A DNA stretch of 58,147 nt, the filler included, from Squatina squatina (Eukaryota): NCBI GenBank assembly GCA_031763465.1. It is 4 parts of 3 records of this genome, joined end to end, with 100 filler letters (N's around TTAATTAATTAA, not from the genome) between each part and the next. Parts side by side here need not be neighbours in the genome. Positions count along the whole stretch, not along the records: positions 12,388 to 25,375 come from JARFOE010000189.1; 3 more parts are not named here. One strand, given 5' to 3'. Numbering within the stretch: position 1 is the first letter of the stretch; each line of letters opens with the position of its first letter. The notes under the pieces were generated by a model that saw only the letters and a list, made by a program, of their open reading frames with translations, ran no database searches and was not told the origin of the DNA. Below, piece by piece: positions 5,776 through 57,631 of the stretch. The translations under genes and the position numbers were made by a program.

Positions 5776-7567
5776 ATTATTGAACTAAAAAAAGGATCAA
5801 GGAAACCGCCTTTTGCTGTAATATACCACTTAAGCACCATTAATGNNNNNNNNNNNNNNNNNNNNNNNNNNNNNNNNNNNNNNNNNNNNNNNNNNNNNNN
5901 NNNNNNNNNNNNNNNNNNNNNNNNNNNNNNNNNNNNNNNNNNNNNAGATCCTACTGTTTAACCTCGTCAAACTCGGCACTTGTGTGATCTATGTATGACC
6001 AGGAGAAATATGTAACTGGGAAATGTCCACTCCAAAAACTCCACTGCAGGGCTACCATACTGAATATGGCATCATACTTGCAACCTCAGCAGATGCCATA
6101 CCCACTGCAGAGCAATGCAAAATTTATCATCTGCGTTTTAATAAGATTTTGTATAAATGTTGTAACTTCAGACACAATCACGTAATCATATCACCGATCA
6201 CAGATTCCTGTTTAAAGCAAGTTATAAAACATCACTGCTTGAAACAGTCCATTACAAATATCAGATGTGTGCTTAAATTTTATTGGACCTTATTTTCTGG
6301 GGCCTATAACCACGTACGTACGTGGTCATACATGCCTCGCAAGTTCCGAGTCTCCACGTACGATGTGCATGCGTGAAAACCCGGAACTTGTGATCTATCA
6401 GATCGTATGAATGTACAGGAAATGGACATTCGCTGGCAGAGAGTTGGACTATTCACCCAAATACTGCCCAGCGAATGCCCACGAAACTCTTATGCCTGGT
6501 AAAGCATCAAAACACCTCTAAAATAAGTTAAGATTATTTTTAGCCTCTTTAAAACATTTAAATTTATTTTTCAAAAAGTTAAATTTTTGCTTTAAATGTT
6601 TTTAATTATTTTTAACGTGTGGTGATTTATTTTTATTTAAGTGGGGTGAAAGTGTGTTTTTTTTTTAGGGGATTCATATTCTGCTTATGGGGATTCCGTA
6701 CGTAAATGGAATCCCCATAAGCAGAATGAGAATCCCCCTTTTGCCATTGTTTGGGCCAGCCCATGTGATCGCAGGGACGCTTGCGAACCGCATACTTTCC
6801 TGGGATACATGAGCCTTTACGCAGGCGTACGCCTGCAGGCCCAGGACCACAAGAGCCCAAAGATACAGAGGCCCCAGGTGCATACTTTTCTTGTAGATCA
6901 GAGGCACTCTCCCATGGGAAGCCTCTGACTGCAATTTCCAGCCCAGTATTGTAAATTCACAGACAGAGGGGTTAAAATAAGGATAGCCCCAGTTAAATAC
7001 GAACATCGGTGCACCTTGTATGCAGTTCACTGCAATAAGAATATGGAAATTAGGCTATTGTGTTTGCAATTATTTATTTTACAGTGGAAATCCAAAGAGA
7101 ACAAGTTTAACAATCCGCTGAAACAAGCAAGTTCTCGAGCTGCATTCGATATCTTTGAAATGATTTCCAGTCATAAATGTGGAAAAAGTGGTAAGCCATA
7201 GGTTAACATGAGAGTATATATCCTCCACCACCATATTTTGACATCTTATTTAAAAATGACTTGTTCAATAGCAAATGGAATTATTCCACAGATTTGCAAT
7301 TTAGGTACATATCTGATAAAGAAGGACATTGGTTTGAAATCTTTCTTTGCTTCACTGTTATGAAATGATTATCTAAATCCTATTATATTTCACATTACCC
7401 AGTGGGTGGCAGGTGCTTTAACAACATTAAAAAGAATGGTTCTCTTCTGAAAAAGCCTGTGCCTGAAGGAAATGCAATACATAAGCTAACACATCTCAGA
7501 CTCTCCTGACAGCACACAATTCCCTATTCAATTCGCACATACGAAAAAAATAAATCACAAGGGCTCA

Positions 7568-12287: not shown

Positions 12288-12387
12288 NNNNNNNNNNNNN
12301 NNNNNNNNNNNNNNNNNNNNNNNNNNNNNNNTTAATTAATTAANNNNNNNNNNNNNNNNNNNNNNNNNNNNNNNNNNNNNNNNNNNN
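12288..12387. other. Artificial concatenation linker N44-TTAATTAATTAA-N44
   Basis: A six-frame stop 12-mer centred in an exactly 100-nt gap. Confidence 0.95.
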
Positions 12388-14567: not shown

Positions 14568-14804
<237 letters not shown>

Positions 14805-18993: not shown

Positions 18994-19088
18994 TCTCACA
19001 ATGAAGGATACATGGAATATGTTCTCCACAGTCCGTGAGTAAGAATGTGGATCAATTACAAAGTCAAAGAAATTGATTGGCGTTTCAG
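18994..19088 (-). CDS. NSMCE4A: NSMCE4A (Nse4 kleisin of SMC5/6) exon ~7, 95 nt
   Basis: Boundaries ttttacag|CT ... AGA|gtaagt. Encodes [31 protein letters not shown], the Nse4 C-terminal motif (human [31 protein letters not shown]). Confidence 0.92.
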
Positions 19089-19808
19089 CTGTAAAAGATA
19101 ATGCAATCGAAAAATTAATATCTTCTGATGACATTATCTCATCAAACCATGTGGCAAAGAATAGGATCGGACAATTAGATTAGAGTAAATGTCTGGCTAA
19201 GAGTGGGGGAAAAAAAGGTGACAGAAAGAAGGGCAACAATTACTGGAAGTAAGTTCTATCTGCAAGTCTTAGATTTGAAGAAACTGGAAACAGTAAAGCT
19301 TTAGGTACATTTATAGACNNNNNNNNNNNNNNNNNNNNNNNNNNNNNNNNNNNNNNNNNNNNNNNNNNNNNNNNNNNNNNNNNNNNNNNNNNNNNNNNNN
19401 NNNNNNNNNNNNNNNNNNGTCGTTGTCACACAGCCGTGAAACCTGAGTCGGGGGGGAGGGGTGTGGAAAAGTTGAATGTTTGTAAATGCTGCATTCCTCA
19501 CTACATTTTATGGCTATTAGCTAGCTGCTACTGAATCTTTTGAAATTTACTATCCTGGACCCCCTCACTGAGTCAGTGTTACTAATTCCAGCCATATTTT
19601 CCTTTCAATCTTCCATTAATTTGTTCGTAAAATCAGAGGTTTTTTTTCCTTGATCCTAGGATTTATTTCCCTCTCCCAGGAAATTGTACAGCTACGTAAT
19701 TGGAAGAATGAGATAGGAATGATGGCAGGCAGAAGTTGCAGCATGCCAGGTATGATATTTGAAAAACAGATGGCCAAGTATTGCAAAGTTGGCATAAAAT
19801 CAACAAAC

Positions 19809-19908
19809 CTGTGTAGGCATTATTCTGCGTTCTTCCTTAGTTGGGACCCTCTTCTGTCTCTCTGTTCTTTGTCGTGGAACTGGAGGTTCACTCTTGAAAG
19901 ATCCCAGC
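19809..19908 (-). CDS. NSMCE4A: NSMCE4A exon ~5, 100 nt
   Basis: Boundaries gtgtag|G ... CAG|gtttgt. Encodes LGSFKSEPPVPRQRTERQKRVPTKEERRIMPTQ. Its phase fits the preceding exon, which ends AT|gt. Confidence 0.88.
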
Positions 19909-20128
19909 CTACACCATAAAATAGATATGTTTAACTTTGTAAGAAAGTAAAAGACAGACTTGCAATTATAAGACGCCTTTCACAACTTCAGGACATCCTA
20001 AAGCGCTTCGCAACCAATGAAGTACTTCTTAAGAGTAGTCACCGATGTACTGTATTTGGACATTTGGATTGCAGCATTAGAAGTTTAACATTGCTACAGA
20101 TAACAGGAGAAAAATGTGCTCAACTTAC

Positions 20129-20274
20129 ATATAATGAAAGGCTTGAGCTCTTTTAAAATATTTTTCAGTTTCATTTCCTAGTTTGGTCCAGGCATCTTTA
20201 GGAAGCCACCCCACAGATTCATCGTCATCATCACTCCCTTCAGTATCCAGTCGGTTCAAACCCATGAATGTCAA
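20129..20274 (-). CDS. NSMCE4A: NSMCE4A exon ~4 sequence (146 nt, open frame, real donor, but no upstream intron or acceptor in this contig)
   Basis: Encodes LTFMGLNRLDTEGSDDDDESVGWLPKDAWTKLGNETEKYFKRAQAFHY(M) and ends AT|gtaagt. Its 5' side is joined directly to an exon-3 copy. Confidence 0.8.
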
Positions 20275-20403
20275 CAGTTCCTCTGCAAAGACTGCTGGGT
20301 CAAAAACTGATTAGCGTTATCTGGACCCAAGTTTGTTTCAAGCACTAGAAACTGGGTATCCAGGGCTGCCTCGTGTGTCTGTCAGACATTGGAAAACAGT
20401 TTG
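20275..20403 (-). pseudogene. NSMCE4A: Processed (spliced) and disabled copy of NSMCE4A exon 2 end plus exon 3
   Basis: 20387-20403 is identical to the exon 2 3' end (21672-21688) and abuts an exon 3 copy with no intron. The copy has an in-frame TGA, a 19-nt deletion (ccatcatatctgtgtgtaa) and several substitutions relative to genomic exon 3 at 21132-21217. Confidence 0.8.
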
Positions 20404-21131
20404 NNNNNNNNNNNNNNNNNNNNNNNNNNNNNNNNNNNNNNNNNNNNNNNNNNNNNNNNNNNNNNNNNNNNNNNNNNNNNNNNNNNNNNNNNNNNNNNNN
20501 NNNAACAAACTTCTTATAGAAAAATGCTAGCTGCAGAACACAATCCAGAATATATGTATTTCTCCTCCATAATCTAGATGAAAGGCATACTAAATCAAGT
20601 GATAATATCACTCTTCAATTTAAACACAAGGCGTTGCCATAATCTTATGTACGCTCTAGCAAAAAGCCAGCACAGACTCTTATGCTGCAAACAACGCTTC
20701 TAATGCATCATTACCATATGACTTTAATCTTTGAGAAACAATAGGCAAAGTTAACTATGTAAAAAGAGTAAAATACTAGAAATTATTGAAAATCAATACT
20801 TCGATCACGTTAANNNNNNNNNNCACTTCTTAACTACCAAAGCACACAATAACTACCAAAACACACAACTGTCAAAGCTGTTGTATGGATATGGTGATCA
20901 CAGCAACAATCACTAGTGGCTCTAATCCTGGTAATTAAGCAAGCTGCTAAACAGTTTTGTAAAAAATGAAATGAAGCAGAGTTAAACATAATTCCATCTT
21001 GGACATTTCGAATGAATTTGAAAACTTTCCAATTCATTTTTTCCAGTTGATAGCAAACAAGTCTCTGGATGTAACTCACTCCACGGTATCATTCTTAATG
21101 TCGTGAAGTTTTGCACGCAAGGAAATCTTAC

Positions 21132-21217
21132 CAGTTCCTCTGCAAAGACTGATGGGTCAAAAACCATCATATCTGTGTGTAACTGATTAGCTTTTTCTTG
21201 ACCCAGGTTTGTTGCAA
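21132..21217 (-). CDS. NSMCE4A: NSMCE4A exon ~3 (5' part lost in gap)
   Basis: Encodes ATNLGQEKANQLHTDMMVFDPSVFAEEL and ends CTG|gtaaga. Nse4/EID-type N-terminal region. Confidence 0.85.
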
Positions 21218-21671: not shown

Positions 21672-21752
21672 CATTGGAAAACAGTTTGTTAGCTTCCTCA
21701 AGTGCTTCTGTTAATTTATTACTGTTGGGTCTGATCATATCCTCACGATTCT
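21672..21752 (-). CDS. NSMCE4A: NSMCE4A exon ~2, 81 nt
   Basis: Boundaries tttcag|AG ... AATG|gtgagt. Encodes NREDMIRPNSNKLTEALEEANKLFSN (human QNREDILNAGDKLTEVLEEANTLFNEV). Confidence 0.9.
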
Positions 21753-25375: not shown

Positions 25376-25475
25376 NNNNNNNNNNNNNNNNNNNNNNNNN
25401 NNNNNNNNNNNNNNNNNNNTTAATTAATTAANNNNNNNNNNNNNNNNNNNNNNNNNNNNNNNNNNNNNNNNNNNN
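25376..25475. other. Artificial concatenation linker
   Basis: Same structure, 12-mer at 25420-25431. Separates the ATE1/NSMCE4A block from the CDH20/PIGN/RELCH block. Confidence 0.95.
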
Positions 25476-25749: not shown

Positions 25750-26044
25750 CTTCATTCTGACATGGATAAGGGAGAAGGTTCTGTCAGATACATCCTCTCT
25801 GGTGATGGAGCCGGCACCGTTTTCACTATTGATGACAACACTGGAGACATTCACGCTGTACAGAGGCTAGATCGGGAGGAGAAAACGCACTACACCCTAC
25901 GTGCACAGGCAGTGGACAGATGGACTGGGAGGCCAATGGAGCCTGAGTCTGAATTCATCATCAAGATCCAGGACATCAATGACAACGAGCCCAAGTTTCT
26001 CGATGGGCCTTACATTGGCAGCGTGCCTGAATTATCACCCGTAG
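25750..26044 (+). CDS. CDH20: Type II cadherin, CDH20-like, EC1/EC2 exon (295 nt)
   Basis: Boundaries ttgtag|CTT ... GTAG|gtaagg. Encodes [22 protein letters not shown]...LDREEK...[16 protein letters not shown]...SPV with the LDRE and DxNDN cadherin motifs. Best remembered match is CDH20, supported by PIGN/RELCH synteny. Confidence 0.9.
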
Positions 26045-26435
26045 GTAAGGAGACACGCATTGTTTTGTGTGTAACCTCTGCCTTGATTGCTGTAGAAGTG
26101 ACACTGGTATTCACAAAGATCCAAAATGCAAAAGCATGCTTCATTTTTATTCTGCAATTGTAACCTATAAATCCTAACTTGGTTTACAAGCATGTCTTTG
26201 CACAGTGTGATGTTTGTCAACAATGAGCAGTCACTTTCATGGACTGTCACTTCAAAAGTCTATATGTGTGTTTTAGGTAAATGGAAATCTATTTACTGAA
26301 CCTTTGGAGAAGGCTTAAGTCAGCTACCTTAAGGAAAGGTTTTATTGAATTGAACAAACTCGATGAATAATTGGATTTCAATGAGGTTTGAGTTTACGCT
26401 GTAGTATTGTGAAGTACAAAATGGCCGACTTTTGC

Positions 26436-28524: not shown

Positions 28525-29021
28525 TGTTGATACTGTTCATTTTAACAATGAGGAAATACAAGAGGAAGTCCCTTATCGTTGATGATGAGGAAAACGTCCA
28601 CGAAAACATTGTACGCTATGATGATGAAGGCGGCGGAGAGGAAGACACGGAGGCCTTTGACATTGCTGCCTTGTGGAATCCCAGAGAAGTGCAGCTGACA
28701 AAATCCAGGCGGGATATGCTGCCAGAAATCGCAAGTCTCTCCCGGTACGTGTCGCAGTCCAGAGTAGGGGGCGACAATGTAAACAACTACATCCTGACCA
28801 AGCTGCACGACGCCAACTTGGACCCCTGCGCCCCCCCCTTCGATTCGTTGCAGACCTACGCCTTCGAAGGGAATGGCTCCCTGGCAGAATCGCTGAGCTC
28901 CTTCGAGTCGGCCACGACGGACTCGGACCACAACTACGATTATCTCAGCGACTGGGGGCCTCGGTTCAAAAAGCTGGCAGACATGTACGGAGGCTCCGAG
29001 AACGTCGAGGACTCCTTGTAG
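28525..29021 (+). CDS. CDH20: CDH20-like terminal exon (end of TM segment and cytoplasmic catenin-binding domain)
   Basis: Acceptor tttcag|TG. Encodes ENIVRYDDEGGGEEDTEAFDIAALWNPRE...PPFDSLQTYAFEG...DWGPRFKKLADMYG, stop TAG. The WNPRE and MLPEIxSLSRYV motifs are characteristic of CDH20. Confidence 0.92.
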
Positions 29022-39063: not shown

Positions 39064-39163
39064 NNNNNNNNNNNNNNNNNNNNNNNNNNNNNNNNNNNNN
39101 NNNNNNNTTAATTAATTAANNNNNNNNNNNNNNNNNNNNNNNNNNNNNNNNNNNNNNNNNNNN
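39064..39163. other. Artificial concatenation linker
   Basis: Same structure, 12-mer at 39108-39119. Confidence 0.95.
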
Positions 39164-49600: not shown

Positions 49601-52600
49601 GATTCAATTGTGGGAGCCCAATGTTCATTTTAACCCAGTGACTATATAATTTCAGCAATAAATTTGCGAATGTTGTTTGCATTATAATGAACAACACAGC
49701 TATCAGTAGGTATTAAAGATGAAGCACATAAGATTGTTTTTTGGTTCCTTTCCTCAGCTACAAGGCACTTAAACCAATTGTAGAACCTTGGCTAAGATCA
49801 GCTAACCGAACACAGACAAGGGATTGAAATTGGGGCCTTCTTATTATTGGCTCAGTATTACAGCAGGCAGTGCTTTTATCCACTGAAACATTGGGGACCT
49901 TGTTGCATATTTAACAGGAAATAATAAAATATTGAAATTTTACTCCTGTGCTTTATGACACAATCTGAACTCCTGGGTGGTTATTACTTGGTAAGGTGCT
50001 ACAGTTTTTCTTTATTATCCTGTATGTAAATACTGACCAAATCTCTCTCCAGTGGCTGAAAATTTCTTGCATGTTTTTGTTGATTTTCAGTAGAGTCAGA
50101 TATCAGAAAAGTTTTAGGGAAAAGAAAAGGGAAATAATAATGTACTGATAAAAAAAAAATCAAACAGCAAATTATTACTGACAATGAACTAACTAATGAT
50201 GAGATGACAAACGTTCTTCAAAGTAAATTCACAGCAAGGTAGAAATAGAAAGCATAGTGATCCCTCGTGATAAGACTTTGCGGTAAATCCAAGTCCCCAA
50301 GTTTAAACTTGATCAAAACGATTTTCACTGTTATAGCAGTAAGTAGAAACATGTTCACTGTGTCTCATTTGATGAGCCAAGATTCTCAATATAGTGGTAA
50401 AATATCACTTGAGAGGTGAAAATCATTTGATGTGACCTGTGTGTTATTAAAGCACCATTTATATTTATATTAGTCACCATGAAAATTGAATACACATTTT
50501 AATAACAAATATTTTTTTAACTAAAATAAAAACATTTTTTAGTATAAATAGAATGCCACAATTTTGAATCTGGGTTTAATCCCACATGTAGCAAAGACCT
50601 ATATAAGTCACTTACAACTTTGTCATGCTTGAAATATGATGACTTCCCCTGTACATGGGAATTTAACCCACAGTGTCCTCTTTTTTAATTGAAAAAACAA
50701 TATTAAGGCCAAGGGCATAGAGCAGGACACTACCAAGGTTGAAAATAGAAGGTTTGAAAATACAGTTAGGGAACAATAGATTGGGTTTGAAAAACTTGTA
50801 CATTGCTGAAGGAAGGGAAGGCTGAGGGAGGTAAACTGTCTAGTTTTGAGGTCTTGAAAAAGAATGAGTTAGACTGTATCTATACTATACACAGACAGTT
50901 ACATTCCAAATTGGTAAATTTTGAATGTTTTGAGAGCTGGATTGGGAGTGCCGTGTTCTCAAAACACTTAAAACAACTCTGCATATGTTTACTAAGTTCC
51001 AGTAGCTCCAAGCTGCCCCCTAAGTACTTGTTAAATTATATTTGAGAACTACTGAAGAGGATCTTACACACTCCTCTCCAGAGTCAAATCAGGACTTGNN
51101 NNNNNNNNNNNNNNNNNNNNNNNNNNNNNNNNNNNNNNNNNNNNNNNNNNNNNNNNNNNNNNNNNNNNNNNNNNNNNNNNNNNNNNNNNNNNNNNNNNTT
51201 TCAAGAGAAAGCTTTCTCTGCACAAAGATAAGGTTGGGTCAGGGCAGAGATTGGTCCTTCCTTTCAGGAGGAAAAAACAGTAAAAGTACCTGATGCAGGG
51301 ATATCTTAATTCACACATAGGAGCATGGCTAAGTCCAAATCTGGTTTCAGGTTTAACATCTTCAATTTAACACTGTGGACCATCTGAAATTCAATGCCAG
51401 GCAGTGTTGACAAGTAAATTCCCTAATTGCTTGTATGAATTTGCGTGAGGCTAATTGTACGATTCAGTTAAACTTTATCTCTAGACACAAGCCTCTTGGT
51501 CAGTGCTGCTGAAATTGCCATAATATACTGGTACAAGCTTCATGAGCATTGTCATAAGTTTAAATCTGTTGCAAATTAACTTTACTACAGTTAATGCAAT
51601 TTATACAAATCAAGAGGAAACTGGAAAATCCATCATTTAGTCTAGTATGGAGGGAAATTGGACATTAAATGATATTGAAGACAGGAAGAATAGTAGTAGC
51701 TTTATTGCAAGCAGTGTTGTTAGAAAACAATGANNNNNNNNNNNNNNNNNNNNNNNNNNNNNNNNNNNNNNNNNNNNNNNNNNNNNNNNNNNNNNNNNNN
51801 NNNNNNNNNNNNNNNNNNNNNNNNNNNNNNNNNTATTGCAAGCAGTGTTGTTAGAACACAATGACGGTTCTGTTGCATTTTTATAATGGTGACAATGTCT
51901 AGTCTCTTTGCAGATAGTTGCAACACAGTACGGCTTTTATGTACTTCTAGTTTTGTGCAAAAACAGGGGTCATTCATTGTGCAAGACAACATTTATAGGC
52001 ACATCACAAAAAATGTTCCAGTTTTGTTTTGTATAGTCAGCGTGATCCTTTGAGCATATTTCGATTGTTAGAAACAGAAACTTAAACAGTTTCTTGACTC
52101 TGTGTAAATAATTGCTTTTTTGTATTCATTCATAATGTTTTCATTGGTGCATTAGAGAAACAAAATATCAAGCAGCTCTTTGTGCAGTTATCACATTTCT
52201 ATAAAAAGACAATGAGCGGGTAATTGAAATAAATGCCAGCAGCTTTTTTTCTGCCTCTGGAGTTTTCAAATGTAGGAGGCAGAGGAACAGGTTTCAATTA
52301 TTGGAAGAAAGATCCCACCCATTTTTGACATATAATTCAGGATTAAATTGTAATTGTATCCCACTACCCTCGTCTCACTAAGTATAGTTCTTTTGAGAAA
52401 GTTTTCCTCTTCTCAGGATGAATTTTATGGATCTGGATATATAATCAATATATATTGAAGATGTATAGTCATATTGCAGGTCACCAGAAATGCTGGCTTA
52501 ACACAACACTCGACTAACATATGGAAGCTGCAAATCAAAAGTTGCTGATAAGTAACATAGTACACCCCAAGTATTTCCACTTGCATTTTGTCAGTGGAAT

Positions 52601-56217: not shown

Positions 56218-57631
56218 ANNNNNNNNNNNNNNNNNNNNNNNNNNNNNNNNNNNNNNNNNNNNNNNNNNNNNNNNNNNNNNNNNNNNNNNNNNNNNNNNNN
56301 NNNNNNNNNNNNNNNNNNATGCTGCAGGGCTACATGGCCCAGTGTGTAGTGCTGCTGAGCTGTACGCCCCGCTCCCACCCCAGGGAGGAAGTGGAGCACT
56401 TGATTTAGCGTTCCACTTCCTTTTGGGGGTGGTAACCCCAATTTATCCCGAGGGGCGGGACTTCTGCACCTGGCACAAAGTATCGCGCCTTGCGAGTGCT
56501 GCCCGGGGTGGTACCCAATTTCTAGGCCTTCATATTACATACTAATGTCAAGTTAATGTTAATAAAATTATAATAGCATTTCTGACTTCTTGTGACTCAT
56601 GATGCTACAATACTATTAGCTTTATCTCAGCGACTATATCTCACCGAGAGTATTTCAGATGTAAATTAATGACAATAAAACACAAAGGTAGTGGCCCATG
56701 GATATCACTATAATTTTAAATAGTTATGTCTCCAGAATTGAAAGGGTCTCCAGAATTATGTCCCATTGGACTAATTTTGTATGTGTTTTGTGTGTTTTTC
56801 TCATTCTTATTTGTATTTATTCCCCCTGGGTTATTGCCTGTTAAAATAGCTGACAAAGGAATTGCAACTGAAGTGAATNNNNNNNNNNNNNNNNNNNNNN
56901 NNNNNNNNNNNNNNNNNNNNNNNNNNNNNNNNNNNNNNNNNNNNNNNNNNNNNNNNNNNNNNNNNNNNNNNNNNNNNNAAAATAGCTGACAAAGGAATTG
57001 CAAATGAAGTGCATTAAGCACCCAGATGCTAATCTTCATAGCGTAGAATTTCAAGGCCTCAGTCTTTCTTGACATACCTTTGTGTTCTTCCTTTCGTTCT
57101 TTCTCTCTATAGTGAATTGAGAGGGTCAATATGTGATCTTTATTTTTAACAGTTATATTTTTTGTATATTGACCCAACATTTACTCTAATTAAGCCTGTA
57201 AAATATCTACTCACGGCATCTAAATTAGAAGACAGCATAGCCTGTAATTGATTCTGTGTCTCTTTCCCATCTTTGCTTTGATCTTCTCGGAGCCATTGAT
57301 TTACAGTGACTGAATAAGTCAAATCCAATTTTTGTTACATGGGATTCTGGGATTTTTACCAATGTTTTGGGAATCGCTTCACACAGATCTGTCTATTAAT
57401 AATTGGGGTCATTGGTTTATAATGATTGAATAAATTAAATTCTGTTTTTATTAAAAGGGATTTTAGGATTTTTAACAGTGATTTGAGGATCAAATTCTGC
57501 AATTCATTCCCTTTTTTCATAAAAAACAGAAATCAGTTACCTTAATAATTCAGCTTTGTATATGAGTTATATTTTTGCATGTACATGTGCTCTATGTTCT
57601 TATATTTGTGCTCATGTACATAGCCATATTT

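Follow-up and report, generated by a model that had tools for sequence, protein, structure and literature searches.

A half-spliced NSMCE4A structure in a short-read shark assembly is very probably a chimera of a processed pseudogene and the true gene

In mammals, the Nse4 kleisin family has a second sequence, EID3 (also called NSE4B), which is intronless. The available part of the literature on it describes a working Nse4 paralog (PMC11431564). Copies made by way of RNA are widespread: the portion of one survey available to us reports retrocopies in every one of its 579 vertebrate assemblies (PMC13320880). Some copies are only half processed: in the semi-processed pseudogenes, of which the available part of one report names mouse preproinsulin I and the copy of TMF1 in CYBB (PMC4151081), some introns are gone while others are kept in one stretch. 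A different outcome of reverse transcription is intron loss, for which the reverse-transcriptase model, as set out in the accessible part of its source, has introns removed precisely from a working gene (PMC3652778).

Here we analyse a stretch of 58,147 nucleotides (the window) from the draft genome of Squatina squatina, assembly GCA_031763465.1, in which the contig at 19419-20403 carries what looks like a half-processed copy of NSMCE4A. We conclude that this contig is very probably an assembly chimera of a processed NSMCE4A pseudogene and the true gene, and that the half-processed structure is most likely not a real feature of the genome. The pseudogene most likely supplies the spliced exons 2, 3 and 4 from about 20403 to 20212, and the true gene the remainder of exon 4 followed by intron 4, exon 5 and intron 5, the two presumably meeting in a stretch of exon 4 that is identical in pseudogene and parent. 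A literature search on NSMCE4A, pseudogene and shark found no paper combining all three terms.

The gene at the locus is the shark NSMCE4A, with 93% identity over 58 amino acids to the protein of Heptranchias and 90% to that of Mustelus; a PF15412 match above the cut-off, together with the match to shark NSMCE4A sequences, places it in the Nse4 kleisin family. Read on the minus strand and with no gap, the contig joins exon 2 to exon 3 and exon 3 to exon 4 exactly at the splice joints, then runs through AT/gtaagt into a 220-nt intron 4 and exon 5 (Table 1), just as a preliminary description of this DNA had stated. Because these joints agree with the Heptranchias protein and with an mRNA-like contig of a relative (X15), their exactness is not a matter of chance. 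The exon 3 copy is also disabled as described: the in-frame TGA falls at R117, a 19-nt deletion lies near 20304-20307, and 6 of the 67 aligned bases differ from genomic exon 3 (20295, 20316, 20319, 20323, 20330 and 20338). The ends of the deletion are ambiguous by 3 bases, as in microhomology-mediated repair. Other parts of that description stand with amendments. Exons 4 and 5 had been called intact, which holds for exon 5, while exon 4 is open but carries E169D and A180V; genomic exon 3 and the intron-flanked exons 2 and 3 upstream are there, although exon 3 is partial, the rest of it falling in a 60-N gap.

Table 1. Coordinates of the NSMCE4A contig, of the neighbouring true exons and of other features of the window
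Feature	Position	Strand	Remarks
Exon 2 end of the processed copy, last 17 nt	20387..20403	-	identical to the genomic exon 2 end (donor at 21672); contig stops at a 100-N gap
Exon 3 copy, decayed	20275..20386	-	112 nt (131 counting the 19-nt deletion); in-frame TGA, 8 changed residues
Exon 4	20129..20274	-	146 nt, ends AT/gtaagt
Exon 4, 5' part	20212..20274	-	likely pseudogene-derived; E169D at 20245, A180V at 20212-20213
Exon 4, 3' part, parent-type	20129..20211	-	0 differences from relatives' parent-type contigs (X2 rec16, X11 rec1, X12 rec7, rec10); putative switch zone
True intron 4	19909..20128	-	220 nt, GT..AG; orthologous intron in X1, X4, X2, X7
True exon 5, intact	19809..19908	-	0 private residues
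True intron 5, part	19419..19808	-	X4 and X7 have the orthologous intron; divergence 9.9%, as in adjacent introns
True intron 3	20504..21131	-	628 nt present; without the last ~153 nt and the AG acceptor
True exon 3, last 86 nt	21132..21217	-	28/28 residues as in P0001; first 45 nt inside a 60-N gap
True exon 2 with GT donor	21673..21752	-	intron-flanked, upstream of exon 3
True exon 7	18994..19088	-	31/31 residues identical to P0001
ATE_C match, weak	14568-14804	-	E 0.0034, below cut-off
Cadherin-20-like exons	25750-26160 and 28710-29018	+	88% to shark proteins; piece after the 25376-25475 spacer
Gaps with an identical 12-base spacer, 44 N either side	12288-12387, 25376-25475, 39064-39163		n=3
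Contig-end overlaps across 100-N gaps	51703-51864 and 56843-57014		31 and 36 nt

We call a residue private when it is present in none of 17 cartilaginous-fish proteins (15 species, two given twice), numbering residues as in P0001. The exon 3 copy has 8 changed residues in 36, every one of them private, and with the stop and the frameshifting deletion they give the picture of disabling changes and neutral decay that marks a processed pseudogene of the Nse4 kleisin family (PF15412, PF08743), as do the exact exon-exon joints and the mostly non-synonymous changes of a spliced part that has diverged by 7-9%. Unlike a processed pseudogene, the copy is visible for only ~190 nt and continues into true introns, which we read as misassembly. 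The contig reaches neither end of the copy, and no poly(A) tail, target-site duplication or insertion site lies within it. The window copy resembles EID3 in being a second Nse4 sequence, but EID3 works and is mammalian whereas this is a dead copy in a shark, and we infer an independent origin; EID3, which had been put forward as context for this locus, is thus not an apt comparison.

Such decay bears directly on one of three readings first proposed, that the contig is a snapshot of intron loss mediated by reverse transcriptase, in which recombination brought a cDNA into the parent locus. Spliced joints do adjoin genomic introns here, exactly, and processed copies abound for NSMCE4A, copies which the model, in the available part of its source, ties to intron loss (PMC3652778). 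However, the model predicts precise removal of introns from a working gene with its frame kept, and in this case the working gene loses no intron: exons 2 and 3 keep theirs upstream, the spliced exons are dead duplicates, and the spliced exon 3 is 9% diverged from its own genomic counterpart. The decay, moreover, extends into exon 4, which would not be expected of a working exon, and the acceptor of intron 3 is missing; its motif, taken from the relatives, was searched for across the window and not found. We therefore consider intron loss at this locus extremely improbable.

The step from decayed to clean sequence lies further along the contig. The two changes at the start of exon 4 (its first 63 nt), E169D and A180V, are each present in 0 of the 17 cartilaginous-fish proteins; E169D is found in 0 of 120 vertebrate proteins, 118 of which have E at this position, and the A180 column varies outside sharks. 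Genomic exons 2, 3, 5 and 7 and the rest of exon 4 together have 0 private residues in 144, against 2 in 21 at the start of exon 4 (p=0.016), and within the contig itself 10 of 57 residues are private and then none of the next 60 (Fisher p=0.0005). Nucleotides behave likewise when set against organism B, with 13 differences in 175 nt and then 0 in 84 (p=0.011), the mRNA-like contig of that organism giving the 13 differences in 20128-20386 and X2 rec16 none in 20128-20211. The background, counted between the true exons and organism B, is 12 differences in 274 nt, and the 4 that fall in the opening 63 nt of exon 4 (three of them listed, the other deduced from record counts) are within it, so that the assignment of the 5' part of exon 4 to the pseudogene, which is likely, rests on which residues changed, the nucleotide count not being decisive. 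Judging from these residues, the switch from aged pseudogene to true gene would sit inside exon 4 and not at the splice joint.

This step also bears on the second proposed reading, a semi-processed retrocopy, in which a single pre-mRNA with introns 2 and 3 spliced and introns 4 and 5 kept was reverse transcribed, inserted elsewhere and scaffolded here. The layout agrees with it, some introns being gone and others kept in one stretch as in mouse preproinsulin I and TMF1 in CYBB, and the class itself exists, as far as the accessible part of the source describes it (PMC4151081). Those pseudogenes, however, are single insertions of one age, in which spliced and unspliced parts should decay evenly, whereas in this contig the spliced part has decayed but the part with introns is clean and corresponds to the parent gene by orthology; 0 private residues in 60 would arise by chance with a probability of about 1e-5. 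The window holds no second copy of exon 5, and the copies in relatives splice exon 4 to exon 5. A semi-processed retrocopy is accordingly very unlikely. Intron divergence from the relatives was also tried as a test of this reading and does not discriminate, with 52 of 527 positions differing in the contig and 105 of 1150 in its neighbours (8 intron pieces, p=0.65). Intron 4 carries a very high-copy repeat at about 19949-20054, at the same place in the relatives, and this repeat may resemble a Deu-domain/AmnSINE1-like SINE.

Related sharks provide the normal arrangement for comparison. The comparison covered 7 of the 24 listed runs (5 organisms), all of them contigs and not reads, which contain introns and are of a kind that was guessed or unrecorded; the 24 are all from organisms other than the species of the window, with a best share of words of 0.09. 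In all 4 of the relatives' runs compared in detail (X2, X7, X11 and X12), intron 3 stands directly before exon 4: X11 rec3 spans exon 4, a 791-nt intron 3 and exon 3, X12 rec11 is arranged likewise, X2 and X7 show the AG acceptor ahead of exon 4 in their loose-end letters, and the joint of exon 4 to intron 3 (20275-20504 in the window) is also present in X4 and X7. The same four runs carry decayed spliced NSMCE4A copies as well, some with a 5-nt deletion. Among the spliced copies of the relatives, the joint of exons 3 and 4 is bridged by 31 or more letters in X11 and X12, provided that loose letters matching exon 3 are included, but the bridge is just 17 nt long in X2 and X4 and 6 nt in X7, while the spliced joint of exons 4 and 5 is bridged by 225 nt in X11 rec1, 34 nt in X7 rec23, 23 nt in X4 and 8 nt in X12. 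Among the 23 relatives' records listed (with 4 pieces not shown), none has the spliced exon 3-4 joint running on into intron 4. This missing link is informative in X7 alone, whose parent (rec22) and copy (rec23) sit on wholly distinct contigs, separate haplotypes that may reflect an insertion of the copy away from the parent; contigs break at branch points, so it says little for X2, X11 and X12 that none of their contigs makes the link.

How the two sequences could have been fused can be followed in X2, where a contig of only 92 nt, corresponding to 20128-20219, has a depth of 27.2. Two contigs enter it, intron 3 at a depth of 15.5 and spliced exon 3 at 12.3, and one leaves it, intron 4 at a depth of 15, all with 30-nt overlaps. 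Judged by its depth and its entries, this is a collapsed two-copy node, lying just where the sequence of the window turns from decayed to clean, and the path from the spliced exon 3 entry through the node to intron 4 reproduces the layout of the window. The processed copy in X11 rec1 is identical to the window over 20128-20190. In a simulation, a copy of 1100 nt at 7.4% divergence from its parent retained about 7 identical runs of 31 nt or more and about 1 of 55 nt or more, and since such runs arise, nodes shared between copy and parent are to be expected. The abrupt switch is seen in the window itself, while identity of copy and parent at the switch zone is seen only in the relatives X2 and X11 and doubled depth at the switch node in X2 (27.2 against 12-15). 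An AG acceptor before exon 4, a copy spliced from exon 4 to exon 5 and doubled depth are what the preliminary description had looked to for recognising a chimera, and each was found, in the relatives' contigs only. The chimera that it had listed as its third reading is supported, with the modification that the switch is within exon 4.

An assembly chimera would have come about as follows. The pseudogene would have arisen by reverse transcription of the LINE type and would be located elsewhere in the genome. The short-read assembly would then have fused both exon 4 copies into a single node and followed the wrong path out of it, the assembler of this window going, as we infer, from the spliced entry through the node into intron 4. 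The end of the true intron 3 and the start of the true exon 4 would have been lost into a gap, and scaffolding would have set the chimeric contig into the parent locus.

An alternative is that the DNA itself is a hybrid: within exon 4, the parent would have undergone an ectopic crossover or conversion with a processed pseudogene that was already aged. The hybrid could be a rare null allele at the locus, or a duplicate lying elsewhere and collapsed with the parent in the assembly. The join does lie within a gap-free contig, a crossover, too, would be placed in a stretch of identity, in line with what is observed, and would give the same decay step, and NSMCE4A retrocopies are common in related sharks; furthermore, a fully spliced source of the window copy, with its 19-nt deletion, was not found among the relatives' records listed, which also counts against a chimera. 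On the other hand, all four relatives are normal, and the same zone is a graph tangle in X2. The copy has 11 AG sites ahead of exon 4, of which a single one, a GAG, keeps the frame while the other 10 shift it, so the locus, having no usable in-frame (YAG) acceptor before exon 4, would likely be null if the join were real. The complex concerned, SMC5/6, is essential for mammalian development and cell proliferation according to the available part of one source (PMC13191284), and by analogy its essentiality may carry over to sharks. In either form, taken jointly, real hybrid DNA seems unlikely to us. If it were true, a dead retrocopy would be writing spliced, mutated exons back onto its essential parent in a wild shark, a natural case of recombination between retrocopy and parent.

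The state of the assembly counts for the chimera. The window is a short-read scaffold of 47 pieces (median 1043 nt), separated mostly by gaps of 100 N whose lengths are placeholders, and the placement of the copy inside its own locus, claimed at first, derives only from scaffolding across such gaps. Contig ends overlap in only 2 of the 46 gaps, and as a route to the k of the assembler these overlaps proved uninformative. The three gaps with a 12-base spacer are likely artificial joins of unrelated scaffolds, across which synteny should not be trusted: the cadherin-20-like gene beyond one of them lies, in six other sharks, on records of a length different from those of NSMCE4A. The ATE_C match is probably, by its sequence, an exon of ATE1, which we take to be a neighbour of NSMCE4A in other vertebrates. 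Exons 1, 6 and 8 onward of NSMCE4A were not found within the window; exon 6 likely falls in the gap at 19319-19418, the distance from exon 5 to exon 7 in the mRNA-like contig of X15 being 91 letters. Loss of these exons to graph tangles caused by retrocopies was considered and discounted, since the gaps hide much sequence generally, and the ATE1-like exon is only 4.4 kb from exon 7. Elsewhere in the window, at 6668-6737, there is a self-inverted stretch of 70 nt with 86% identity.

For annotation, a chimera would mean that bases of the pseudogene stand here in place of the start of the true exon 4 and would mislead; more generally, in short-read vertebrate drafts, any gene with retrocopies can be made to look half-spliced by the assembler. 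The earlier inference of an NSMCE4A retrocopy in this lineage holds, and at least two further types of processed copy occur in related sharks, which stands whether the join is real or not. By their shared changes, one type has 20197, 20223, 20254 and 20261 in X2, X11 and X12, and the other 20228 and 20252 in X2 and X7. None of the diagnostic changes of either type (20197, 20223, 20254, 20261 and 20373; 20228 and 20252) is in the window copy, and its 19-nt deletion is in no relatives' record listed; at most, site 20295 is shared with the first type, judging from alignment ends, and any change closer than about 30 nt to the end of an alignment goes unlisted, making the comparison of window copy and relatives' copies incomplete. 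Orthology of the window copy to either type is unsupported, and on its sequence it may be a third, independent retrocopy. Repeated retrocopying of NSMCE4A in sharks may merit a count in long-read genomes. One of the copies in X7 includes just 6 nt of exon 3 before it stops at a 5-base simple repeat.
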